Below, one piece after another: positions 2,973-40,697 of a stretch of 44,360 bases of DNA. Within the stretch, counting starts at the first letter, position 1. Each line of letters opens with the position of its first letter. The DNA lies in assembly GCA_964605575.1 (NCBI GenBank), contig CAZSDG010000002.1:1-44360 (forward strand), read 5' to 3'. This stretch comes from an uncultured Muribaculaceae bacterium. Lineage in GTDB: Bacteria; Bacillota_I; Bacilli_A; RF39; UBA660. The notes beneath the pieces were generated by a model. The model was not told the DNA's origin. It worked only from the letters and a program-made list of their open reading frames with translations, and ran no database searches. The position numbers and the translations under genes are program-made.

Positions 2973-3272
2973 TTATTTTACAATTTTAAATATTATTTCT
3001 CCCTCCTTTGATATCAAATATTTTTCTCGTGCATACTTGGCAGCATAGTCAGGATCTTCCAACTTAATTATCTCGCTTCTAAGGTTTTCTTCGGTTTTTA
3101 ATAATTCTTTATGTCTTTTTTTCAAACCTTTTTCAACACTTCGATTACTTATAATTCTAGACCAAGCTTCAACTGTTGTAACACACAAATAAGCCGCCAA
3201 AAAGCAGCAAATAACAAAAGAAAATAATATGCGTCTCTTATCTTTTTTTGTCTTTTTTCGCATGTACTTCAC
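2973..3272 (-). CDS. divIC: Septum formation initiator (FtsB/DivIC family)
   Basis: 99 aa. Basic N-terminus, one TM helix, a coiled coil, then DPDYAAKYAREKYLISKEGEIIF, which is typical of DivIC/FtsB. Confidence 0.65.
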   Translation of the reverse strand: MKYMRKKTKKDKRRILFSFVICCFLAAYLCVTTVEAWSRIISNRSVEKGLKKRHKELLKTEENLRSEIIKLEDPDYAAKYAREKYLISKEGEIIFKIVK

Positions 3273-3291
3273 CTAACCATCTATTATTTTA

Positions 3292-3320
3292 ATTATATAG
3301 ACAATCTAAGTTTAATACAA
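3292..3320 (-). promoter_or_regulatory. Sigma-A type promoter for divIC (TTGTAT-17 nt-TATAAT)
   Basis: On the minus strand, -35 TTGTAT is at 3320..3315 and -10 TATAAT at 3297..3292, with a 17-nt spacer, about 20 nt upstream of the divIC ATG. Confidence 0.55.
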
Positions 3321-3727: not shown

Positions 3728-4549
3728 TTATTTACTTAATTTTTGTGTTAGCTCAATAAAGACATTTATTGGTAGCTCTTCAGCGCGAGAATTCAAATCG
3801 AATTTGTGTTTTTGCAATACATTATTAACAATGTCTAAATCGTATTTTCGTAAATTATTTCTAATGTTTTTGCGTTTAAATTGAAATGAATCACGCAGTA
3901 GTTTTTGAAAAAAATCCAAATCAATTTCTTCTTCATTTTCTTTTTTTTCAAAAAGTAGGACAACGCTATCAACTTTCGGTTTTGGCAAAAAATTTTCTTT
4001 ACCAACAAATAATACTTTTTTTATATTATAAAAATAATTTAAATGAACAGTTATTGAGCCATAAGATTTTGTTCCAGGTATAGCAGTAAATCTTTCGCCA
4101 ACTTCTTTTTGAACCATTAACAACATTTTATTTACTTGAATATTTTCATTAATTATTTTATTAATAATTGGCGTTGTAATATAATATGGTAAATTAGAGA
4201 TGATATATAAGTTTGAATAGTTTCTATTCTTTAAATAGTCTTTAATATCTATTTTTAGGAAATCTGCAAAAACTATTTCTGATCGCTCTGAAGAAAATCT
4301 ATCCAAATAAACTTTTAAATCTTCATCAATTTCAAAACCAATATAGTTTGAATTTTTGCTTAAAATTATTGCTGTTAAATCTCCTTGACCAAGGCCTATT
4401 TCAATAACCAAGTCATCTTCTTTTACATCAATAAAACTAACTATTTTTTTTAATAGATTTTTATTTTTAATAAAGTTTTGACCAAATTGTTTTTTAGTTT
4501 TATATTTATTCATAAAAGAAAAGGCGTTTATTCGCCTCTTTTTTTCCAA
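3728..4549 (-). CDS. rsmA: 16S rRNA (adenine1518/1519-N6)-dimethyltransferase RsmA/KsgA
   Basis: FGQNFIKNKNLL, SAM motif VIEIGLGQGDLT, NLPYYITTPI. The track start is a TTG at 4549; an ATG at 4513 (MNKYKTKKQFGQNF) is an alternative start. Confidence 0.9.
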   Translation of the reverse strand: MEKKRRINAFSFMNKYKTKKQFGQNFIKNKNLLKKIVSFIDVKEDDLVIEIGLGQGDLTAIILSKNSNYIGFEIDEDLKVYLDRFSSERSEIVFADFLKIDIKDYLKNRNYSNLYIISNLPYYITTPIINKIINENIQVNKMLLMVQKEVGERFTAIPGTKSYGSITVHLNYFYNIKKVLFVGKENFLPKPKVDSVVLLFEKKENEEEIDLDFFQKLLRDSFQFKRKNIRNNLRKYDLDIVNNVLQKHKFDLNSRAEELPINVFIELTQKLSK

Positions 4550-5085
4550 CCTTTTCTTAATAAGTCATATTTTATTTGGCTTCTACCTATTTTTCTTCCA
4601 GCATAGTCCTCTGATTCTGTTAACAAATCTATTGCGGTTCCACCAACACCTCGATCTAAAACAATCGCTATAACTGGTTCGGCAGAAACTCTACTTGATT
4701 CAAAACGAATTATCGAACCACAAGGAATATTTTTTGAAGAAGCGACAATTCTAACATTACCATAATCAGCATCTTTATGAATTATTGTTCCATCTCTTAC
4801 ATCTTTACTTGTACAACCTAAAAAACCAGAGCATAGAGCACAATCAGCGCCATATCCAGTTAGGTCCCCAACAAAAGAATCCAGCGGAGAGTATAAATCA
4901 TCATAATTTATTGCTTCCATTACCTCAGCTCTTGCACTAAGATTAAGTGTTTTATTTAAATTTTCGTTTATAACTCTAACTTCGTTTTGTCCTGCAATAT
5001 TTTTAGCAAGAAATAGCAGTCCAAAAACAAGAACAAACTGAAAAAAACGATAAATGTTTTTTAAGATTTTTTTCAAGATTATCAC
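4528..5085 (-). CDS. Membrane-anchored 3D-domain protein (YabE-like, putative cell-wall lytic/remodelling)
   Basis: N-terminal TM helix, then GYGADCALCSG...VASSKNIPCGSIIRF...AIVLDRGVGGTAIDLL, typical of the 3D (MltA-like) domain. It occupies the yabE position between tatD and ksgA. Confidence 0.6.
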   Translation of the reverse strand: MIILKKILKNIYRFFQFVLVFGLLFLAKNIAGQNEVRVINENLNKTLNLSARAEVMEAINYDDLYSPLDSFVGDLTGYGADCALCSGFLGCTSKDVRDGTIIHKDADYGNVRIVASSKNIPCGSIIRFESSRVSAEPVIAIVLDRGVGGTAIDLLTESEDYAGRKIGRSQIKYDLLRKGWKKRGE

Positions 5086-5121: not shown

Positions 5122-5874
5122 TTAAATGTCAAAAATTCGTTTAATGTTTTTTTCTGTTTGAGATGATATTTCTTCCGCTGATATATCCAGTTCTTTAGAT
5201 AAGTAATTTACTATATCTATTACCATTTTCGGTTCGTTTTTCTTACCGCGGTTTGGTTCTGGTGTTAAATATGGACAGTCCGTTTCAAGAATAATATTTT
5301 CAATACCCACTTTTCTTATCACTTCAATTAATTTGCTATTTTTAAAAGTAACAGTTCCATTTATTCCAAGCAAATACCCCATTTTAATATATATTTGTGC
5401 CGTTTCATAACTACCAGAAAAAGAATGAATAACGCCTTTTAAACTATACTCTTTTAATATTTTTATCGTATCTTCCGTCGCTTCACGACTATGAATAACA
5501 ACTGGCTTGCTCTTCGCTTGAGATAATTTAAGCATTTTGTGAAACAAATTAATTTGTTCTTCTTTTGTATTCTTGCCATAATAATAATCTAAGCCTATTT
5601 CACCAATCGCTATTATTTTTTGATTATTTACGTTTTCATTAATGAACTCAATCCAGGAAAAATCATAGTCTAATGCTGAATGAGGATGAATTCCAAGTGT
5701 TCCAAACAAATTTTTGTACCGATTTACTATAACACTAACTTCTTTATTAGAATCATTATCATAACCACTCGTTATATATCTTAGAACATTTCTTTCTTTA
5801 GCGTTATCAATAATTACGTCAATATCATCATAATATTTTTCGCTTAAATGACAATGACTATCAGTAAAATTCAT
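5122..5874 (-). CDS. tatD: TatD-family metal-dependent hydrolase (YabD)
   Basis: MNFTDSHCHL..., GEIGLDYYY, VVIHSR, ETDCPYLTP motifs. Confidence 0.9.
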   Translation of the reverse strand: MNFTDSHCHLSEKYYDDIDVIIDNAKERNVLRYITSGYDNDSNKEVSVIVNRYKNLFGTLGIHPHSALDYDFSWIEFINENVNNQKIIAIGEIGLDYYYGKNTKEEQINLFHKMLKLSQAKSKPVVIHSREATEDTIKILKEYSLKGVIHSFSGSYETAQIYIKMGYLLGINGTVTFKNSKLIEVIRKVGIENIILETDCPYLTPEPNRGKKNEPKMVIDIVNYLSKELDISAEEISSQTEKNIKRIFDI

Positions 5875-9104: not shown

Positions 9105-9626
9105 CTATTTCTTTTCTAAAATAAATTTATTAATATCACGTATAGCTAAATCGAAGATTTCATTCAGTATTTCTACCTCTTTTTTAGTAAATTTACTCAA
9201 TACAAAATCTTTTGCATCCTTATTATTTGCATTGTTAACACCTATCTTGATTCTCAAAAAATCTGTTGTATTTATATTATCTATTATAGATTGAATCCCG
9301 TTATGGCCACCAGAAGTACTATGATTTTTTAATTTATAATTTCCAATCGGCATATCAATATCATCTTGAATTATTAATAGATCTTCAATTTTTATTTTGA
9401 AATATTTTAAATATTTTTTTACTACAATTCCAGATAAATTCATGTATAGGAGTGGTTTAATAAAAATAATTTTTTCTCTACCAAATTTTGTTTCATATAT
9501 CAATGCATCAGGTTTTGATTGCCAGGCAACATTGCCTAAAAATTTATCAATTAAAAGAAAACCAATATTGTGACGGGTTTTTTCATATTTTTTACCTGGA
9601 TTTCCTAAACCGACAATTAACTTCAT
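9105..9626 (-). CDS. pth: Peptidyl-tRNA hydrolase
   Basis: MKLIVGLGNPGKKYEKTRHNIGF..., GGHNGIQSI. Confidence 0.95.
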   Translation of the reverse strand: MKLIVGLGNPGKKYEKTRHNIGFLLIDKFLGNVAWQSKPDALIYETKFGREKIIFIKPLLYMNLSGIVVKKYLKYFKIKIEDLLIIQDDIDMPIGNYKLKNHSTSGGHNGIQSIIDNINTTDFLRIKIGVNNANNKDAKDFVLSKFTKKEVEILNEIFDLAIRDINKFILEKK

Positions 9627-10417
9627 TTGTTTTTTTTCTCTTTCTTTTCCTGTTTAACTTCTACTGTAAATCTTTCGTTGTTAATATTTACTATTACTTT
9701 TTGGGAAATAATATCAATATTTTCAACCTTGCCTTTACCGTGTTCAGTAGTTATAATTTCACCAATTTGTGGCATGTTTTTTCTATATTCTTGGTATTGC
9801 TCGTCTTCATATGTAAGACAACAAAGTAATCTTCCACAAGCGCCATTTATTTTATTAGGATTTAAGGCGATGTTTTGATTTTTAGCCATGTTTATGGTTA
9901 CAGTATCAATTGAATCTAAAAATGAACAACAACATAACTTTCTACCACACTGACCTATACCGCAAACTTCTCTTGCTTTATCTCTTACACCAATTTGTCT
10001 TAATTCGATTCTGGTGTGGTATATACTAGCAAGTTTTTTTACTAATTCTCTAAAATCTACTCTTTCGTTTGCTAAAAAATTAAATAGCAACTGTTTTTTA
10101 TCAAACGTATAACTCGCATCAATTAATCGCATATTTAAACCCATTTCATCAACTATTTTACGAGCATTATTTAATGCTCTAGCGGCAGCTTCTTGATTTG
10201 AAGCATGAATTTCTAAATCTTTTTCTGTAGCAATTCTCAAAATTTGCTTATAATTATTTAAAGCATCCACTTCCTTGCCTTTTCTTACTACACTTGCAAT
10301 TTGTGCTCCTTTGTCTGTATCAACAATTACTTTTATATTTACATCTATGTCGTCTTTACTTACAAAATTGTACACCTTGCCATTCTGCTTAAAAACTAAT
10401 CCATATAATTTATACAT
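9623..10417 (-). CDS. ricT: PSP1-domain protein YaaT/RicT (stage 0 sporulation protein-like)
   Basis: 264 aa. Cys clusters CGIGQCGRKLCCCSFL and GACGRLLCCLTYE are typical of YaaT. It sits downstream of holB as in Bacillus. Confidence 0.85.
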   Translation of the reverse strand: MYKLYGLVFKQNGKVYNFVSKDDIDVNIKVIVDTDKGAQIASVVRKGKEVDALNNYKQILRIATEKDLEIHASNQEAAARALNNARKIVDEMGLNMRLIDASYTFDKKQLLFNFLANERVDFRELVKKLASIYHTRIELRQIGVRDKAREVCGIGQCGRKLCCCSFLDSIDTVTINMAKNQNIALNPNKINGACGRLLCCLTYEDEQYQEYRKNMPQIGEIITTEHGKGKVENIDIISQKVIVNINNERFTVEVKQEKKEKKNK

Positions 10418-14416: not shown

Positions 14417-14433
14417 TTATTTCACCACCATAT

Positions 14434-14510
14434 AAAAAGTGCACACAAACAGTGATTGTTATGGCTGCTATTTTCCAATCCTGACCAATTTCCAATGTGT
14501 TTGTTGCACA
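14434..14510 (-). ncRNA. ffs: Signal recognition particle RNA, small 4.5S type
   Basis: The minus strand reads GUGCAACAAACACAUUGGAAAUUGGUCAGGAUUGGAAAAUAGCAGCCAUAACAAUCACUGUUUGUGUGCAC-UUUUU. It has the conserved domain IV core GGUCAGG..GGAA tetraloop..AGCAGCC and a long closing helix. Its own promoter lies just upstream. Confidence 0.85.
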
Positions 14511-14515
14511 TATGA

Positions 14516-14545
14516 ATTATAACATATTATCATTAGTTTATTCAA
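14516..14545 (-). promoter_or_regulatory. Promoter of the SRP RNA gene (TTGAAT-18 nt-TATAAT)
   Basis: On the minus strand, -35 TTGAAT is at 14545..14540 and -10 TATAAT at 14521..14516. The predicted TSS coincides with the first base of the SRP RNA helix. Confidence 0.65.
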
Positions 14546-14560
14546 TAAATATTTTTTTAA

Positions 14561-14576
14561 TGTTACACGTGTAACA
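14561..14576. other. parS site 1 (TGTTACACGTGTAACA, perfect palindrome)
   Basis: Matches the Firmicute parS consensus TGTTNCACGTGNAACA at all specified positions. An identical second copy lies 90 bp away. Confidence 0.8.
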
Positions 14577-14582
14577 TGGTTT

Positions 14583-14598
14583 TATTTCCCGGGAAATA
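14583..14598. other. Noc-binding site 1 (TATTTCCCGGGAAATA, perfect palindrome)
   Basis: Identical to the B. subtilis NBS (core ATTTCCCGGGAAAT). The palindrome extends to 20 bp (14581..14600). Confidence 0.8.
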
Positions 14599-14621
14599 AA
14601 ATGATGGTTACAAACAAAAAT

Positions 14622-14637
14622 TATTTCCCGGGAAATA
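14622..14637. other. Noc-binding site 2 (TATTTCCCGGGAAATA)
   Basis: Second identical NBS. Here the palindrome extends to 30 bp (14615..14644) and is followed on the minus strand by UUUGU, so it could also act as the gyrA terminator. Confidence 0.8.
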
Positions 14638-14650
14638 ATTTTTGGGTTGA

Positions 14651-14666
14651 TGTTACACGTGTAACA
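14651..14666. other. parS site 2 (TGTTACACGTGTAACA)
   Basis: Second identical copy. It abuts the gyrA stop codon (14668..14670). Confidence 0.8.
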
Positions 14667-14667
14667 T

Positions 14668-17151
14668 TTAATTTACTTGCTCATCTACTTCTAGTTCCGT
14701 TTTTTCTTCAGAATCTTCATCAGTAGCATTTGTTTCTTCTTGTTCAATTACACTAACTGTGGATACCTTTTGTTCATCTTTTAAAGTTATTAATCTAACT
14801 CCTTGGGTTACGCGACCAAGTTGAGATATCTGCTCGATTGGAAGTCTAATCATCATGCCAGAATCTGTTATTATCATTAAATCGTGCTCATCATCAACTA
14901 CTCTAAATGCAATTAATTTTCCTGTTTTTTCTGTAGTATTTAATGTTTTTACGCCTTTGCTTCCTCTTTTTGTTTGTCTATACTCTGATAGCCTAGTTTT
15001 TTTACCATAACCATTTTCAGTTACAATAAGAATATTATCTTCAGGAGAAGCAACAGCTGCTCCTATACAACTTGCTCCATCCAAGTTAATTCCTCTAACT
15101 CCCGAAGCTGTTCTTCCCATTGTTCTTACTTCTTTTTCATCAAATACGACCATTCTTCCAGAATCTGAACCTAATACAATTAAACTATCATCATCTGTTA
15201 GTTTAACGGAAATCAATTCGTCACTTTCCTTAAGAGTAATACAAATTTTACCAGTTTGTCTAATGCTTTCAAATTCAGAAACACACGTTCTCTTGACTAA
15301 TCCCTCTTTAGTAACAAATACCAATTTTTTATCTATTTGTTCAGGTGAATATTTAATTACTGAGTTTATCATTTCATCTTTATCTATTTGTAATAGATTT
15401 ATAATAGGCAACCCTTTTGCTTGTCTACTGTATTCAGGTATTTCGTATCCTTTTAAACGATAGACTTTTCCTTTGTTTGTGAAAAACATAATATAATCAT
15501 GTGTTGATAAATTCAGCATCAGTTCAACAAAATCCTCTTCATTAATCGACATTGCTTTAACACCGACACCACCACGGTTTTGAGTTTTGTAAGTATCAGC
15601 TGTGATTCTTTTAATGTATCCGTTCTTAGTAATTGTTAATATGCTGTTTTTTTCTTCAATTAATGACTCGTCATCAATATATTCAATAGCGGTCATATCA
15701 ATTATTGTTTTTCTTGGATCATTATATTTATTTTTAATTTCTAACATCTCAGACTTTATTATATCTAAAACTCTTTGGTTGTTTGCCAAAATATCTTTTA
15801 AATCAGCAATTAATTTTAATAATTCGGCTAACTCTTCTTCAATTTTATTTCTTTCTAAACCAGTTAATCTTCTTAACTTCATTTCTAAAATTGCTTGTGT
15901 TTGTTCATTTGATAATGAAAACTTTGTCATTAATTGATTTACTGCTTCTTCATCATTTTTAGCTTCTTTAATTGTTTTAATCACTGCATCAATGTTATCA
16001 AGTGCAATTTTTAATCCTTCAAGTATGTGCTCACGCGCTAGTGACTTTTCTAAATCAAACCTAGTTCTTCTTACTATAATTGTTTTTTGATAATCAACAT
16101 AATGATTAAATATATCAAGCAACCCCATTGTTTGTGGTCTGCCATGAGATAACATCAACATGTTAATACCATATGATACTTGTAATTGAGTTTGTTTATA
16201 TAAATTATTTAATAAAACATTTGCATTTGCATCTCTTTTTACATCAATTACTATTCTTATTCCTTCAAGAGCTGATTCATCGTGTAAATTAGAAATACCA
16301 TCAATCATTTTATCTCTTACTAATTCAGCGATTCTTTTAATCAGTGATTGTTTATTAACTTGATATGGTAGTTCAGTAACAATTATTCTTGATTTATCAT
16401 TTTTTTCTTCGATTTCGACTTTTGAACGAATTGTTATTGTTCCTTTACCAGTTTCAAATGCTTTTTTTATACCACTATTTCCAAGGATTGAGCCTGCAGT
16501 TGGGAAGTCTGGACCTTTAATATACTGCATTATTTCTTCTATTGTTATTTCGTTATTATCAATGTAAGCGATACAAGCATCAATAACTTCTCCTAAATTA
16601 TGTGGCGGAATATTTGTTGCCATTCCAACAGCAATACCCATATTTCCATTTACTAATATATTTGGAAATCTACTTGGTAGTATTTCTGGTTCTCTTCTTT
16701 GACCATCATAGTTATCTTTAAAATCAACTGTGTTTTTGTTTAAATCTCTTAACAGTTCCATTGATATTTTTGAAAGTCTTGCTTCTGTATAACGATGGGC
16801 AGCTGCGCCATCACCATCAATTGAACCAAAGTTACCGTGTCCATCAACTAGTGTATGGCGATATGTAAAATCTTGAGCCATTCTAACCATTGAATCATAA
16901 ATTGCTGCATCTCCGTGTGGATGGTAATGTCCCATAATTGCTCCTACAGCATTTGCACTTTTTTGGTGTTTTTTTTCGGGAGTCATTCCTTCTTCATACA
17001 TTGTATATAAAATTCTTCTATGAACAGGTTTTAAACCATCTCTTACATCAGGTATTGCTCGAGAAATGATAACGCTCATAGAATAGTCTAAAAATGAGGT
17101 TTTCATTTCATTTGTTAAATCGTGAATTATAATATTTTCTTCGTTATTCAT
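14668..17151 (-). CDS. gyrA: DNA gyrase subunit A
   Basis: 827 aa. DGLKPVHRRILY, the AAHRYTEARL active-site Tyr region, a C-terminal beta-pinwheel and an acidic tail. Confidence 0.97.
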   Translation of the reverse strand: MNNEENIIIHDLTNEMKTSFLDYSMSVIISRAIPDVRDGLKPVHRRILYTMYEEGMTPEKKHQKSANAVGAIMGHYHPHGDAAIYDSMVRMAQDFTYRHTLVDGHGNFGSIDGDGAAAHRYTEARLSKISMELLRDLNKNTVDFKDNYDGQRREPEILPSRFPNILVNGNMGIAVGMATNIPPHNLGEVIDACIAYIDNNEITIEEIMQYIKGPDFPTAGSILGNSGIKKAFETGKGTITIRSKVEIEEKNDKSRIIVTELPYQVNKQSLIKRIAELVRDKMIDGISNLHDESALEGIRIVIDVKRDANANVLLNNLYKQTQLQVSYGINMLMLSHGRPQTMGLLDIFNHYVDYQKTIIVRRTRFDLEKSLAREHILEGLKIALDNIDAVIKTIKEAKNDEEAVNQLMTKFSLSNEQTQAILEMKLRRLTGLERNKIEEELAELLKLIADLKDILANNQRVLDIIKSEMLEIKNKYNDPRKTIIDMTAIEYIDDESLIEEKNSILTITKNGYIKRITADTYKTQNRGGVGVKAMSINEEDFVELMLNLSTHDYIMFFTNKGKVYRLKGYEIPEYSRQAKGLPIINLLQIDKDEMINSVIKYSPEQIDKKLVFVTKEGLVKRTCVSEFESIRQTGKICITLKESDELISVKLTDDDSLIVLGSDSGRMVVFDEKEVRTMGRTASGVRGINLDGASCIGAAVASPEDNILIVTENGYGKKTRLSEYRQTKRGSKGVKTLNTTEKTGKLIAFRVVDDEHDLMIITDSGMMIRLPIEQISQLGRVTQGVRLITLKDEQKVSTVSVIEQEETNATDEDSEEKTELEVDEQVN

Positions 17152-20260: not shown

Positions 20261-20713
20261 TCAAAAATTACTTAATTTACGATTTCTCAAAACTGATTCT
20301 AATCTTGTTGCTCTTAATATTTGATTATTCATTACTCCATAAGAAACATCTGACTCAATTATGGTATTATTTTTAAATAATATATAATTTTTATCATTTT
20401 TTTTAATTATTTTTTCTACATTTTTTAAAGATATCCAAGAACACTTATCTATTCTTGGTGACATTGTAGGAAAAAATATTATTTCCTTGCTCTCTTCAAT
20501 AATTACTGGTGCTTTATGTGTAACACCAATTAATTTTGAAGTTCCTTTTTGACGACCTTCTAAAGAACTTCCGAAAAATTCACAACTATCATCCATTATC
20601 TTTAATGCGGATTTATTTACAATAAACACACGATCAGTTTCATAGACTTTGGATTTATCGGATTTAATTGGAATAACAGCAAGTGTTTCTTCATTAATCT
20701 CATATTCTTCCAT
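20261..20713 (-). CDS. comK: ComK-family competence transcription factor
   Basis: 150 aa. YEINEETLAVIP, CEFFGSSLEGRQKGT, HKAPVII and IFFPTMSPRIDKCSWISL line up with B. subtilis ComK (YEVNGATIAVLP, CRFFGSSYAGRKAGT, HKPPIMV, IFLFPTLSSTRPQCGWIS, quoted from memory). Confidence 0.85.
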   Translation of the reverse strand: MEEYEINEETLAVIPIKSDKSKVYETDRVFIVNKSALKIMDDSCEFFGSSLEGRQKGTSKLIGVTHKAPVIIEESKEIIFFPTMSPRIDKCSWISLKNVEKIIKKNDKNYILFKNNTIIESDVSYGVMNNQILRATRLESVLRNRKLSNF

Positions 20714-28859: not shown

Positions 28860-29572
28860 AAGAAGAACAATTTATTGAGAAGTTAAAAGAACTTCAGATT
28901 GAAATTACAAATGATCAGTTAGAAAAACTAAATATATATTATGAGTTTCTTGTTGAATATAATAAAAAAGTTAACTTAACAGCAATCGTTGAAAGAGATG
29001 AAGTATATTTAAAACACTTTTATGATTCACTAACACCAACAAAAATAATCGATTTTAGTAAAATAAATACTATGATTGATGTTGGAACAGGCGCTGGTTT
29101 TCCTGGAGTTGTACTTAAAATATTTTTTCCAAGTTTAAAATTGACATTATTAGATTCAAATAATAAAAAAACTATATTTCTTGAACAATTGCTAAATAAA
29201 TTAAAATTAATTGATGTTGAAGTAATTTGTTCAAGAAGTGAAATATTAGTTAAGAATTCCAAAAAAAGTTATGATCTGGTTGTTGCTAGAGCAGTAAAAA
29301 ACTTGGATGTACTTTTGGAACTGTGTTTGCCGCTAGTTAATAATGGTGGCCGTTTTCTTGCAATGAAAGGCAAATTAGATGGAGAACTTACGGACAATAT
29401 TTCAGTAATAAAATACTTTGATTGTGAGATTGAAAAGCATGTTAGTTTCAATCTCCCCGATCAATCAAACAGAAATTTATTACTAATAAAAAAACAAATT
29501 GATGCAAAAACAATTAAACCAAGAGAATATTCTCAAATAATTAAAAAACCATTGAAATATCTGGTAAAATAA
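28856..29572 (+). CDS. rsmG: 16S rRNA (guanine527-N7)-methyltransferase RsmG
   Basis: KHFYDSL, DVGTGAGFPG. ATGA overlap with mnmG. Confidence 0.93.
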   Translation: MKEEQFIEKLKELQIEITNDQLEKLNIYYEFLVEYNKKVNLTAIVERDEVYLKHFYDSLTPTKIIDFSKINTMIDVGTGAGFPGVVLKIFFPSLKLTLLDSNNKKTIFLEQLLNKLKLIDVEVICSRSEILVKNSKKSYDLVVARAVKNLDVLLELCLPLVNNGGRFLAMKGKLDGELTDNISVIKYFDCEIEKHVSFNLPDQSNRNLLLIKKQIDAKTIKPREYSQIIKKPLKYLVK

Positions 29573-29610
29573 AGTAATATTAAATATAGAATAATAAAAG
29601 AGGGGCAAAA

Positions 29611-30822
29611 ATGAATTCAAATTCACAAGTAATGGATATTTTTATTGAAGAAATAATTCCTAATCGTTTTCAACCACGACTTTCTTTTGATGAAAAAAAG
29701 ATTAATGAACTTGCAGCCTCGATTAAAGTACATGGAATAATACAACCTTTAGTTTTAAGACGTATTGGAGATAAATATGAAATAATCGCTGGTGAGAGAA
29801 GATTTAAAGCCGCGACAATGGTTGGTTTAAATAAAGTACCTGCAATTATTGTTGAAATGGATGATACAAAGAGTGCTGAAGTTGCACTTGTTGAAAATCT
29901 CCAAAGAAAAGATTTATCAGCAATAGAAACAGCAAAGTCATTTAAGAAAATCCTTGATATGGGACAGATGACACAAGAACAATTAGCAGAAAAAATGGGT
30001 GTTTCTCAATCCTCAGTGGCTAATAAACTTAGATTATTAAATCTTGATGAAAAAGTTCAACAAGCTTTATTAGAAGAAAAAATTTCAGAAAGACATGCAA
30101 GAAGTATGTTATCAACATCAGATTATAATCAACAGCAACAATTATTAGAAAAAGTTATTAATGAAAGATTAACCGTAAAACAACTCGATGAAGAAATTAA
30201 AACAATGTTGAAAGGAAACGGTATTGAAAAAGTGGAAGTTTTTGAAGAAGGTTCAAATGTAGAAAGTTTTGATTTATCAGAAAATGAAAATAATTCTGAA
30301 AAATTTGAGTTTTTTGACGAAAAAAAACCTGATATTATTGAAACGTCACCGAATCAAGAACCAATAAAAGAAGTTTTTAGTTTTGATGAACCAATAATTA
30401 ATACATTAGAAACTGCAAATCCAGAAAAAAGCATTTTTACTAATGGTGAACCAATTATTGACTTATCATCGAATAATGTTTCAGATAATTTGTCTAATGT
30501 TCAAAGTATCGAAGAAATGACAATTTTGACAGAAGCGGAAAAAGAACAAGCGGCTATTATTAATTTAGATCAAGCTATTAGTGAATTACAGCCAGATAAT
30601 GAGAATCCTGAACCACTTATTGTTTCAGAAAAACAACCAGAAGAACAAACAACAGAAGTAATTAAAGAAATAGAAATAAAAATTGATAAAAATAACTTTA
30701 GAACTGTTGAAGAGGCATTTGACAACTTAAAAAAAGACATAGAGAATGCTGGTTTAAGAATAGATATGGATACTTATAATTTTGAACAATACTATCAGTT
30801 GATAATTAAAGTTTATAAATAA
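29611..30822 (+). CDS. noc: ParB-family protein of the Noc (nucleoid occlusion) type, with a long acidic insertion
   Basis: IPNRFQPR, the GERRFKAA CTP-binding box, LVENLQRKDLS. The HTH region QSSVANKLRLLNL...ISERHAR and the C-terminus FEQYYQLIIKVYK resemble B. subtilis Noc (QSTIANKLRLLKL...ITERHAR, FEEYIQLTIRIPK, quoted from memory). It sits at the syntenic position after rsmG. Confidence 0.8.
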   Translation: MNSNSQVMDIFIEEIIPNRFQPRLSFDEKKINELAASIKVHGIIQPLVLRRIGDKYEIIAGERRFKAATMVGLNKVPAIIVEMDDTKSAEVALVENLQRKDLSAIETAKSFKKILDMGQMTQEQLAEKMGVSQSSVANKLRLLNLDEKVQQALLEEKISERHARSMLSTSDYNQQQQLLEKVINERLTVKQLDEEIKTMLKGNGIEKVEVFEEGSNVESFDLSENENNSEKFEFFDEKKPDIIETSPNQEPIKEVFSFDEPIINTLETANPEKSIFTNGEPIIDLSSNNVSDNLSNVQSIEEMTILTEAEKEQAAIINLDQAISELQPDNENPEPLIVSEKQPEEQTTEVIKEIEIKIDKNNFRTVEEAFDNLKKDIENAGLRIDMDTYNFEQYYQLIIKVYK

Positions 30823-30846
30823 GGAATTATTTATTCCTTTTTTTTA
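30821..30846 (+). terminator. Rho-independent terminator after the noc-like gene
   Basis: AAGGAAT-TATTT-ATTCCTT followed by a T-run. Confidence 0.7.
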
Positions 30847-37011: not shown

Positions 37012-37067
37012 TGACAAGAACGGAATTACTATGACTGCTATTAGTCATGGCGGAAGGAGCAAATAAA

Positions 37068-38023: not shown

Positions 38024-38725
38024 ATGGTTGAATTTATATTAATTGAAGATGATTTATTGATTCATAATACAGTTGAAAAAATCATTGTCAATTTATTATT
38101 TTCAAAAAGCATCGAATTTAATATTCAAACCTTTATTAATTATAATTCTGAACTTCAAAAAGTAATTGAAAGTAGCAGTATGAAAAAAATATATATTATT
38201 GATATACAATTAGCTGGTAAAATTTCCGGAATTTCAATTGCCGAAAAAATTAGAGAAAAAGACTGGGATAGTGAAATAATATTTATTACAAATCATTCTA
38301 AAATGTTTGAAAAAGTTTTTAATAATATATTAAATGTTTTTTCATTCATCGAAAAATTTCACAATTTTGAAGAAAGACTAACAGCCGATATTAAAAGAAT
38401 AATTTCCCATAAAATTGATAATGAAACTTTTAATTTTTCAAAAGGAAAAATAGATTTAAGAATACGTTTTAAAGAAATTATATATATTTTTCGTGAAACA
38501 AGCACCAGAAAAATTCATATAATTACTACAAATAATGAATTTATTATTTCGATGAATATTAAAGACATAATGTTAAAACTTGACGGTAGATTTGCTCAAG
38601 TTCACCGCGCTTGTATTGTTAACAAAGATCGTATAGTAAAATATGATTGGAGAAATAAATATTTTGAAACAGATAATAAAAAAATAGTATACTTGCTGTC
38701 ATCAAAATACAAAAAATCAATATGA
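38024..38725 (+). CDS. agrA: LytTR-family response regulator (AgrA-like)
   Basis: Receiver domain (ILIEDD, YIIDIQL phospho-Asp context, IIFITNHS, FIEK) and a C-terminal LytTR domain (IIYIFRE..., FAQVHRACIVNKDRI). Similar in outline to S. aureus AgrA (YFLDIQL, IIFVTSHS). Confidence 0.85.
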   Translation: MVEFILIEDDLLIHNTVEKIIVNLLFSKSIEFNIQTFINYNSELQKVIESSSMKKIYIIDIQLAGKISGISIAEKIREKDWDSEIIFITNHSKMFEKVFNNILNVFSFIEKFHNFEERLTADIKRIISHKIDNETFNFSKGKIDLRIRFKEIIYIFRETSTRKIHIITTNNEFIISMNIKDIMLKLDGRFAQVHRACIVNKDRIVKYDWRNKYFETDNKKIVYLLSSKYKKSI

Positions 38726-39987
38726 ACTTTAATAGTTTTATCCTATTTTTTACAGTTATTTCATTATCAAGCCTTGTAAATATTTTTTGTATTAAAAAAA
38801 TATCTTCAAAACGAGTAGAATTCAACATAATTAATACTGTAATATTTATTGTAGCAACAATAATAGTTATGTTTAATAATTTACAAAACAATATTCTTTT
38901 ACTTTTACCAATTAATTTTGTAGTAATGCTAATATTAAATCGGTTTATATTCAAAATAGATAAAAATATTATATTTAAATATTTAACTGTATATTTTATT
39001 ATTGGGATAACAATCGATATTATGTTGTCAATATTATTAATAATATTTGGTTTTAACAATATTATAGAATTTAATAATGATAATCTATTTAAGTCCCTTT
39101 ACACCTTAATTCATTCGATATTTGTAATACTATTATTTTATAATAAAAAGACGTATTCAATTATCGATAGCATTGTTGTAAGCATTGAAAAAATTGAAAA
39201 TCAATTTGTTATAATTACTATTTTTGTTTTTATATCTAGTTTACTGATGAAATTTAATGTATCAGAAAAAATTATGATTAAAAAGTATCTATCAATAATA
39301 CTTATATTTACATTTTTATTAATGCTGATTATTAAATTATATAAAAGTATCTATAAAAATAGTTTACTAATTAATAATTTAATAAAGGCGGAAAAAATAA
39401 ATAATGAATATCGCTTAATGAAACACAATATTTTAAACGACTTAATTCATATTAAAACAAGTAAGACAGATGAAATTGTTCAAGAAACAATAAATAAATA
39501 CCTGGAAGAAAAAAACAATAATATAAATCTTGGGATTATTAAAGATGGAATTAACGGAATTATTTACTACAAAATGCCGGAAATTATTGATAATAAAATA
39601 AGTATATATATTAATAATGAACTAGAAGAAAATATAGAAAACCTTATTCCTGCAAGACAATATAAATCTTTTTGTGATATATTTTCTATTCTAATTGATA
39701 ATGCACAAGATGCAGCTTGTTGTAGTGAAAAAAAGAATATATACATAAATATATATAAAAATAATGAAGTATTAAATTTAATGGTTGCAAACTCATTTAA
39801 TAATAAAATTGATTTAGATCAGTTAGAAAATATTAACTATTCTACTAAACTCATTCCCAGTGGATTAGGTCTATTTTATATTAACAAAATAAATGATAAT
39901 AAGTTTAAAATAAATCGAATAATAAAAGAAGATGTATTTATTACTAAGGTATTGTGGAAAATAAATAATGACATTAAAAAAATATAG
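38722..39987 (+). CDS. agrC: AgrC-like (HPK10) membrane sensor histidine kinase
   Basis: About 200-aa polytopic N-terminus, H-box RLMKHNILNDL, N-box ILIDNAQDAA, G-box PSGLGLFYINK. ATGA overlap with the regulator gene. Confidence 0.8.
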   Translation: MNFNSFILFFTVISLSSLVNIFCIKKISSKRVEFNIINTVIFIVATIIVMFNNLQNNILLLLPINFVVMLILNRFIFKIDKNIIFKYLTVYFIIGITIDIMLSILLIIFGFNNIIEFNNDNLFKSLYTLIHSIFVILLFYNKKTYSIIDSIVVSIEKIENQFVIITIFVFISSLLMKFNVSEKIMIKKYLSIILIFTFLLMLIIKLYKSIYKNSLLINNLIKAEKINNEYRLMKHNILNDLIHIKTSKTDEIVQETINKYLEEKNNNINLGIIKDGINGIIYYKMPEIIDNKISIYINNELEENIENLIPARQYKSFCDIFSILIDNAQDAACCSEKKNIYINIYKNNEVLNLMVANSFNNKIDLDQLENINYSTKLIPSGLGLFYINKINDNKFKINRIIKEDVFITKVLWKINNDIKKI

Positions 39988-40020
39988 ACAGTTTGCTTTC
40001 TAACTGTCTACATTTATTTT
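39985..40020. terminator. Bidirectional terminator between convergent agrC and agrD
   Basis: TAGACAGTT (39985..39993), 8-nt loop, AACTGTCTA (40002..40010). A T-rich tract follows on the plus strand. Confidence 0.6.
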
Positions 40021-40047
40021 ATTACTTCAATTAATCTGTTTTTTTCT

Positions 40048-40164
40048 TTATAACAGAGACTTTGGACATTCTAGTTCATCTAAAATAAACCAAAAACAAG
40101 CTGTTCCATTGTTTACTGCAACTGTACTTAGAACAATTAATGTTGAAGCTAATAATTTTTTCAT
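40048..40164 (-). CDS. agrD: AgrD-like autoinducing peptide precursor (38 aa)
   Basis: Not in the ORF track (under 60 aa). Hand translation: MKKLLASTLIVLSTVAVNNGTACFWFILDELECPKSLL. RBS AAAGGAGGAAAAC lies inside the agrB 3' end, and there is an ATGA overlap with the agrB stop. The Cys+4 ring followed by an acidic DELExPK tail parallels S. aureus AgrD (CDFIM-DEVEVPKEL). Confidence 0.85.
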   Translation of the reverse strand: MKKLLASTLIVLSTVAVNNGTACFWFILDELECPKSLL

Positions 40165-40697
40165 GTTTTCCTCCTTTCTTTAATATCAAAATTGAGATAA
40201 TTACGATAAGGTTGTCCAAATATTTTATAAGTAAATGGAGAAATCAAGAACAATTGAAAAGTAGCTGCCCAGAGCATGCTTGTTGAAACATTTTTTGGTA
40301 CAAAATTCAATAAAATGATGTATATAAATAATATAAACAATGTTAAAAATTTACTAAAAATTCTTTTTTTCTTATTAAGCATTGATTTTTTCACGGTGTC
40401 GGCAGGTGCCCAAATAGTATAAAAAGGTAGATAAATTATCAATAATATTAAAAATATATTTGTTGGTAAATCTATTTTAGTTATTAGAAAAGGAATAATA
40501 AGAAATGCTATTAGAGAAAAAAACCAACAATCCCTACTTTTAGACAAATGTATTCCAAAAGAAAAAGTCCGCAATGGGAAATAGCACAACATGAAAATAA
40601 TTGTATTATTAAAGTTATTTAGAAAAAAACTCAACAATAATATTACTAACAGTTTTGTCGTAGTCATAAGTATACCTTTTAACCCATAAATAAACAT
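40161..40697 (-). CDS. agrB: AgrB-like AgrD-processing membrane endopeptidase
   Basis: 178 aa, polytopic. The catalytic His/Cys pair has the S. aureus spacing (FGIHLSKSRDCWF; H50, C57). agrD lies immediately downstream. The start could also be M11 (40667). Confidence 0.8.
   Translation of the reverse strand: MFIYGLKGILMTTTKLLVILLLSFFLNNFNNTIIFMLCYFPLRTFSFGIHLSKSRDCWFFSLIAFLIIPFLITKIDLPTNIFLILLIIYLPFYTIWAPADTVKKSMLNKKKRIFSKFLTLFILFIYIILLNFVPKNVSTSMLWAATFQLFLISPFTYKIFGQPYRNYLNFDIKERRKT

Follow-up and report, generated by a model that had tools for sequence, protein, structure and literature searches.

A ParB-family protein encoded at positions 29,611 to 30,822 of the 44,360-nucleotide stretch of DNA analysed here (contig CAZSDG010000002.1 of assembly GCA_964605575.1, referred to below as the window) is probably a Noc-type protein that loads at Noc-binding sites (NBS), in a form without N-terminal helix that is common to its whole family, and not an intermediate between ParB and Noc; a separate ParB would then be encoded elsewhere in the genome. 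The original prediction, drawn from the sequence of the window, had likewise taken the protein for a Noc lacking its membrane-targeting helix, and had proposed it as an intermediate or dual-specificity member of the ParB family, a proposal that is not retained here. The gene and the domains of its product are the following:

29611..30822, + strand: Noc-like ParB-family gene, 403 aa, ATG start
29626..29904, + strand: ParB_N CTPase domain, residues 6-98 (Pfam PF02195, E 9e-32; AlphaFold2 predicted local distance difference test score, pLDDT, 75-91)
29908..30210, + strand: HTH_ParB DNA-binding domain, residues 100-200 (Pfam PF17762, E 5e-31)
30226..30669, + strand: acidic disordered linker, residues 206-353 (from composition and pLDDT)
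30670..30819, + strand: Noc-type C-terminal (dimerisation) domain, residues 354-403, ending in FEQYYQLIIKVYK (from hhalign and BLASTP)

Matches among sequences of the Protein Data Bank (PDB) place the protein nearest to Noc, with 198 bits for Geobacillus Noc and 186 for B. subtilis Noc, followed by 164 for B. subtilis Spo0J and 117-157 for other ParBs, while in the reverse comparison Spo0J was nearer to other ParBs than to Noc. The AlphaFold model, confident over residues 7-202, retrieved Noc in all five of its best Foldseek matches, and the predicted DNA-binding domain (DBD) superimposes on the Noc DBD-NBS complex 6Y93 with template-modelling (TM) scores of 0.90-0.93 and root-mean-square deviations of 1.2-1.7 Å. 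The NCBIfam noc score exceeds the parB_part score by 103 bits for this protein and by 100 to 115 for its relatives, compared with 30 for Spo0J and 154 for Noc. In the CTPase domain, the motifs IPNRFQPR (16-23), box I HGIIQPLVLR (41-50) and box II GERRFKAA (61-68), together with ENLQR (95-99) at the boundary after it, line up with the Noc structures 7NG0, 7NFU and 7OL9.

The phylogenetic placement and the C-terminal domain (CTD) concur with these observations. In a neighbour-joining tree of limited sampling (210 columns, 100 bootstraps), the noc-like family and canonical Noc are each supported at 100 and their union at 96, with B. subtilis Spo0J, Thermus Spo0J and Myxococcus ParB falling outside it; the ParB/Noc phylogeny that the original prediction had proposed as a check thus puts the family on the Noc side, and suggests that it is the sister of canonical Noc, having separated after the Noc/Spo0J split. 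A profile of the family CTD, built from the last ~60 residues, was matched by hhalign to the canonical Noc CTD profile with a probability of 97.8% (E 8.6e-13, 53 columns), the C-terminal ends of both coinciding, and BLASTP aligned the C-terminus of the protein end to end with residues 257-283 of B. subtilis Noc (E 0.008). On the contrary, neither sequence nor profile comparison produced an alignment of the Spo0J C-terminal domain with this C-terminus. PDB matches, fold, NCBIfam difference, tree and CTD all agree with an assignment to the Noc rather than to the Spo0J type, and the Noc-like character earlier ascribed to the C-terminus is borne out as well.

The four residues of the helix-turn-helix (HTH) that determine site specificity were found where they had originally been read, at Q133 (nt 30007), K139 (30025), N144 (30040) and R161 (30091), and three of the four match Noc (Q173, K179, K184 and R201 in Caulobacter numbering). 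QKNR is present in 116/116 parsed close homologues, whereas the canonical Noc quartet is QKKR in 119/119. Among representatives at 50% identity, Q and R never vary, the second position is usually occupied by K or R, and the third is N in 107/145, K once, and otherwise mostly S, T, A or G; R at the 201-equivalent occurs in every family member with a parsed HTH (~260/265). R173 and G201, the parS-reading residues, are absolutely conserved in ParB orthologues, and R173Q plus G201R act as specificity switches between parS and NBS, Q reading A1 and R reading C6 of NBS, while for specificity towards NBS one Lys, at either 179 or 184, suffices (Jalal et al. 2020, PMC7383237). The dual-specificity variants of the same study contain mixed sequence elements and mostly T, S or C at position 201. 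Since Q, R and one Lys suffice in that mutational scan, QKNR predicts an NBS reader and not a dual reader.

The N-terminus is where the protein departs from described Nocs. Only 5-6 residues (MNSNS) stand ahead of the conserved core, compared with ~28 in canonical Noc; alignments to solved Noc structures begin at residue 4-6 of the protein, equivalent to Noc residue 26-27, and the NCBIfam noc model begins at residue 6, compared with residue 29 in B. subtilis Noc. As both kinds of alignment start there, ~23-28 N-terminal residues of Noc have no counterpart. No longer N-terminus can be read from the DNA either, since an in-frame TAG at 29587-29589 closes the reading frame upstream and the 7 codons between it and the ATG (AAT AAT AAA AGA GGG GCA AAA) hold no possible start, so that the reported absence of the helix stands. 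A helix relocated within the protein was not detected by a hidden Markov model (HMM) built from 27 distinct canonical Noc N-termini and run against 275 family sequences, the best score being 0.5 bits and no better than with reversed sequences; a hydrophobic-moment scan gave no discrimination, even the B. subtilis Noc helix not being outstanding in it. In Noc, the amphipathic membrane-targeting helix (aa 1-15) is highly conserved and needed for function, all Nocs examined in that work had it, and a Noc without its first ten residues is nucleoid-bound, off the membrane and non-functional (PMC4331003). By analogy with this truncated Noc, it is reasonable to suppose that the protein cannot reach the membrane, as was originally proposed, although conserved motifs are present in its linker.

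The short N-terminus is not peculiar to the window. The 120 closest homologues (320-487 aa) all have 15-21 residues before NRFQPR and a common C-terminal motif, and an exhaustive HMMER search over 1.84 billion 50%-identity representatives, of which the best 150 matches were analysed, returned 150/150 of the same type (227-791 aa, median 446), with 13-29 residues before the core. On the contrary, in 120 canonical Bacillaceae Nocs (median length 289 aa) the core is preceded by 37-56 residues, and the motif MK..FS[RK].F is present in every one of them. Across the family the N- and C-terminal domains are strongly conserved, and the linker between them is hypervariable in length. Judged from the sequences compared, the helix-less form is the normal state of a very large, uncharacterised sister family of Noc. 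No description of a helix-less Noc family was found in the searchable literature, and nothing relevant on Noc in Erysipelotrichia or Mollicutes was found there.

Family members occur in gut and digester bacteria. By GyrB, the nearest named relatives of the organism are 'Mollicutes bacterium' metagenome-assembled genomes (MAGs) (94%), 'Bacilli bacterium' MAGs and Candidatus Coprovivens (74%, Bacilli incertae sedis), and farther relatives are gut bacteria that form spores; the genes spoIIR and spoIID are present in several relatives, which are on this ground regarded as spore formers. Some public MAG records with family members or with GyrB of this lineage (L003, L004; P0433) are labelled 'uncultured Muribaculaceae' or 'Ignavibacteriales', labels that must be due to mis-binning or mislabelling, because the gene content is that of Firmicutes.

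The gene occupies the slot of noc. The order in the window is recF-comK-dnaN-dnaA / rpmH-rnpA-yidC-jag-mnmE-mnmG-rsmG-X-argS-rpoE-like-prfA-prmC, X being the noc-like gene, so that its syntenic position and the direct succession of argS in place of soj-spo0J are as originally described. The gene begins 38 nt downstream of the rsmG stop (rsmG ends at 29572), a gap that makes co-transcription with rsmG probable. Two further signals frame it:

29598..29605, + strand: ribosome-binding site aaGAGGGG, with GAGGGG 5 nt 5' of the ATG, read from the sequence
30823..30845, + strand: A+T-rich hairpin GGAAT-atttt-ATTCC with T8 after it, identified by direct reading

This hairpin with its T8, between the noc-like gene and argS, is likely an intrinsic terminator; a terminator scan missed it, its G+C lying below the threshold of the scan. 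Neither a second ParB nor any ParA domain was found in the other open reading frames (ORFs) of the 44 kb window. The rsmG-noc-like arrangement without soj-spo0J recurs in seven relatives (L005-L009, L012, L013), among them L005, from an abundant gut species, and the deepest branches of the family, and their flanks (the equivalent 10 kb) showed no ParA or second ParB. The description of the gene as a lone paralogue consequently holds for the window and for these flanks, and probably reflects a lineage-wide feature of gene order rather than loss of ParB from the genome. A published COG table reports ParA (COG1192) as absent from some Erysipelotrichia and 'ParB/YyaA', in which Spo0J and Noc are lumped, as present in all, and is compatible with either one or two readers of the sites described next.

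Candidate binding sites lie between the gyrA stop codon and the gene for the small signal recognition particle (SRP) RNA, all four within 106 bp:

14423-14517, - strand: small SRP RNA gene (scr; Rfam RF00169, 60.8 bits)
14561..14576, no strand assigned: parS-type palindrome TGTTACACGTGTAACA, flanking the NBS pair and kept in L010, L011 and L014
14583..14598, no strand assigned: perfect 16-bp NBS TATTTCCCGGGAAATA (18-bp TTATTTCCCGGGAAATAA), predicted loading site of the noc-like protein
14622..14637, no strand assigned: second perfect NBS TATTTCCCGGGAAATA, by motif match
14651..14666, no strand assigned: second parS-type palindrome TGTTACACGTGTAACA, right after the gyrA stop (gyrA on the - strand, ending at 14668)

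Of the perfect NBS and perfect parS that had been announced 15 kb from the gene, the NBS are indeed perfect; the parS turn out to be a palindromic variant, TGTTACACGTGTAACA differing from canonical parS TGTTTCACGTGAAACA by one T>A change per half-site. In L015 and L016 this variant is replaced by canonical parS. The identical 18-mer TTATTTCCCGGGAAATAA occurs twice in the window and also in L007, L010, L011, L014, L015 and L016; in genomes of 26-28% G+C it is not expected by chance, and its presence agrees with the prediction of an NBS reader. The gyrA-scr interval of relatives holds comparable arrays:

L010 (GyrB 94%), 3200-3316: parS-NBS-NBS-parS, sites identical to those of the window, spacers with insertions and deletions
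L011 (GyrB 83%), 5387-5497: NBS-terminator-NBS-parS
L014 (GyrB 86%), 9251-9645: three parS...NBS pairs
L015 (GyrB 78%), 14420-14633: one NBS, then two NBS-10 nt-parS units, parS being canonical TGTTTCACGTGAAACA
L016 (an abundant human-gut species, GyrB 74%), 14454-14956: four parS (TGTT[TC]CACGTG[GA]AACA), no NBS

The position of the array is thus conserved in six organisms, with GyrB identities down to 74%, while its site content varies and its spacing is not conserved. The parS array looks like an old, conserved centromere-like element of the lineage, which NBS sites look to have joined in the sub-lineage of the window. A single perfect 18-bp NBS was also observed between jag and mnmE in two distant relatives (L007, 5892-5907; L016, 3158-3175).

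These arrays bear directly on whether the protein might be the sole ParB-family protein of its genome, an intermediate with dual specificity serving parS-type and NBS sites alike, a possibility that appears highly improbable. It would account for this being the only ParB-family gene seen both in the 44 kb of the origin region and in the relatives' flanking DNA, for the pairing of NBS and parS-type sites within ~100 bp in four organisms, for a third specificity residue that is neither that of Noc nor a typical ParB one, and for the Erysipelotrichia genomes without COG1192 ParA. Nonetheless, no variation is seen at the equivalents of Q173 and R201, a single Lys is sufficient, and T or S is what most dual binders have at position 201; an N in third place is the family norm (107/145) and not a peculiarity of this protein; and the family, with its Noc CTD, branches with Noc after the Noc/Spo0J split instead of being basal to Noc and Spo0J together. 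The sites themselves point the same way, since parS-type and NBS sites differ at 4/9 positions of each half-site, a larger divergence than in the classical pair. The two types, moreover, behave independently, because the array of L016 consists of four parS without NBS and its only NBS lies elsewhere, an arrangement that argues for a separate parS reader. The flavour of parS also shifts among relatives (TTACAC, TTTCAC, TTCCAC) while no change from QK(N)R was seen in the family quartet, a comparison that does not extend to the proteins encoded in L015 and L016. We therefore hold it very probable that there are two readers, NBS being served by the noc-like protein and parS by a conventional R...G ParB from elsewhere in the genome; the parS-type palindromes at 14561 and 14651 are accordingly probably read by this other ParB and not by the noc-like protein.

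The linker separating the HTH from the CTD is the other distinctive part of the protein. In the family it spans 62-535 aa and is acidic (median -0.14 charge per residue), and residues 206-362 of the protein from the window have a net charge of -29, with pLDDT values below 50, predictive of disorder, at residues 205-227, 244-259, 263-314 and 337-350. Islands conserved in the near clade are nevertheless recognized within it, namely IEKVEVFEE (205-213), IIETSP (242-247), KSIFTNGE (273-280), VQSIEEMTIL (297-306), LDQAISEL (319-326) and NENPEPL (330-336). The motif [PT]x[NG][KR]FFN[FL]LE[DE]Exx[NS]M[NS] is found in roughly half of the representatives, with PNKFFNFLEDEEANMN as the linker consensus in many family members (P0122-P0263), and in the clade of the window the two halves of this motif are separated and correspond to KSIFTNGE and VQSIEEMTIL. 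Its second half takes the form DIPSFEEL in some close relatives, and may in this form resemble the conserved FtsZ C-terminal peptide DIPxFLR. A slight likeness of the linker motif to the Noc helix was considered as evidence of a copy of that helix, and was ruled unsupported by the profile search (0.5 bits). The acidic context of the linker argues for protein docking rather than lipid binding.

Putting these features together, the noc-like protein would nucleate at NBS, recognized through Q133, R161 and the permissive K139 rather than at parS, would spread onto neighbouring DNA as a clamp gated by cytidine triphosphate (CTP), and would dimerise via its Noc-specific C-terminal domain. NBS loading and clamp spreading are expected from the preservation of IPNRFQPR, box I, GERR and ENLQR; where K66 stands, Noc has the only box II arginine whose substitution, R91A, did not abolish foci (PMC4331003). 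The downstream effect would be exerted without insertion of an N-terminal helix as in B. subtilis, for the family cannot use the N-terminal membrane mechanism, given that Noc minus ten residues is non-functional (PMC4331003). Output would more likely pass through the linker, which may act as a docking motif for a partner protein or through its bulk and charge. An NBS-loaded clamp with output through the linker is thus suggested by the sequence features, with low confidence for the linker half. More tentatively still, and as a possibility that we rate below even, the clade may have swapped the membrane helix for an acidic linker with a docking motif, by which a partner protein, or charge and bulk, would couple the nucleoid to division or segregation, the sub-lineage of the window loading it beside ParB at paired NBS-parS sites.

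Other explanations of the missing helix can be weighed on the same evidence. The protein might have taken over a centromere or SMC-loading role, as a second clamp that marks the origin from NBS beside ParB, without occlusion. Such a role, which we regard as unlikely, would be in line with the finding that, in the window as in its closest relatives, no NBS was seen outside the parS array near the origin, with the absent helix and with the intact CTPase and spreading motifs; the view of NBS is nonetheless limited to 12-44 kb per genome, the NBS of L007 and L016 between jag and mnmE lie outside the array, and no evidence ties Noc-type proteins to SMC loading. Somewhat more doubtful is a transfer of membrane contact to the aromatic motif of the linker, which reads N[KR]FFNFLEDE..NM in many family proteins and, in this one, KSIFTNGE plus VQSIEEMTIL. 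The presence of this motif in about half of the representatives, the retention of both halves in the window protein and a superficial likeness to the Noc N-terminus MKHPFSRFFGLGEKE speak for it, but the profile of canonical N-termini finds nothing beyond its reversed control, the strongly acidic context is unfavourable for anionic membranes, and the motif is predicted to be disordered. Finally, that the sequence stems from a metagenome-assembled contig could raise the thought of a decayed or mis-assembled Noc with an N-terminal truncation peculiar to this MAG. To this we give practically no credit: an independent assembly and more than 260 homologues, retrieved from numerous samples, show this very N-terminus, linker architecture and C-terminus, both terminal domains are strongly conserved, rsmG ends 38 nt upstream and an in-frame stop is present, so that family-wide conservation refutes a MAG-specific truncation or decay.

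Some results weigh against the reading of the protein as an NBS-loaded Noc beside a separate ParB. On the NCBIfam noc model (TIGR04285) it scores 275 bits over model positions 1-198 of 255, below the cut-off of 315, and the absolute score is weak, calibration on the same model giving 373 bits for B. subtilis Noc and 257 for B. subtilis Spo0J; in this alignment the C-terminal part of the protein is set apart by the long linker, and the excess of the noc over the parB_part score is more telling. The tree samples Bacillaceae Noc only, one Firmicute Spo0J and two outgroup ParBs. The QKNR variant is not reported in the text of PMC7383237 or in those of its supplements that were examined, and its NBS specificity is extrapolated from variants of QK(A/K)R type built on the ParB of Caulobacter. 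The separate ParB, in turn, is inferred from the parS arrays.

Compared with Noc of B. subtilis and Geobacillus thermoleovorans (7OL9, 7NFU, 7NG0, 6Y93; TIGR04285), the protein shares the slot directly after rsmG, a CTPase domain that contains GERR and ENLQR, the switch residues Q and R together with K at 179, a core 45-48% identical, a homologous C-terminal domain and the presence of perfect NBS sites. It differs from them in having 5 residues where Noc has ~28 before the core, without amphipathic helix or spacer, N where Noc has K at the 184-equivalent, and an acidic disordered linker of ~150 aa where the canonical one is short and net-basic (~5 aa by the same boundaries), as well as in a gene not followed by soj-spo0J and a score below the TIGR04285 cut-off. 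With ParB/Spo0J (6SDK, 1VZ0, 4UMK, 6T1F; TIGR00180) it has in common the fold, the CTP-binding motifs, 38-43% core identity and a predicted clamp-and-spread behaviour. On the contrary, it shows Q/R where ParB reads parS with R/G, NRFQPR where Spo0J has NPYQPR, neither an N-terminal ParA-stimulating peptide nor an adjacent parA (soj), and an unrelated C-terminal domain, Spo0J branching outside the clade of family and Noc. Its Q-K-x-R resembles the engineered PtoN variants (PMC7383237) in combining both switch residues with one permissive lysine, with the difference that here the state is natural, ancient and widespread, has N, S, T, A or G at 184, and is set in a Noc and not a Caulobacter ParB scaffold.

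Additional features of the window were recorded. An agr-like cassette at 38024-40697 comprises a LytTR response regulator (38024-38725), a 421-aa ORF without Pfam match that is possibly a sensor kinase (38722-39987) and AgrB (40161-40697, - strand); in an independent assembly of the same organism (L001, 18414-19912) this region is ~2.2 kb shorter, with a 301-aa LytTR gene directly before hpf, which indicates strain-level variation. A ComK-family gene lies between dnaN and recF (20261-20713, - strand) and at the same place in L005, L007, L009, L012 and L014-L016, a slot taken in B. subtilis by yaaA, a small S4-like gene. Ahead of rpmE, at 37029-37059 (+ strand), lies an L31 ribosomal-protein leader (RF03156, 35.5 bits), and a 185-aa ORF with GTG start and no Pfam match (4528-5085, - strand) is found between ksgA and tatD, overlapping ksgA by 22 nt.

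Regarding the evolution of the ParB superfamily, the noc-like protein does not provide a living intermediate from ParB to Noc, and its natural and widespread Q-K-x-R quartet with a non-lysine third position agrees with the result of the mutational scan that a single permissive lysine suffices. An N-terminal helix that, under control of CTP, drags NBS-bound DNA to the membrane is the basis of present Noc models (PMC4331003, PMC8429893), while the family described here, which includes abundant human-gut bacteria, keeps the other hallmarks of Noc and lacks the helix in every member. Either these helix-less proteins do something other than nucleoid occlusion, or they reach occlusion by another route; if the helix was indeed exchanged for a docking linker, as tentatively proposed above, they would constitute a second, mechanistically different Noc-based system.

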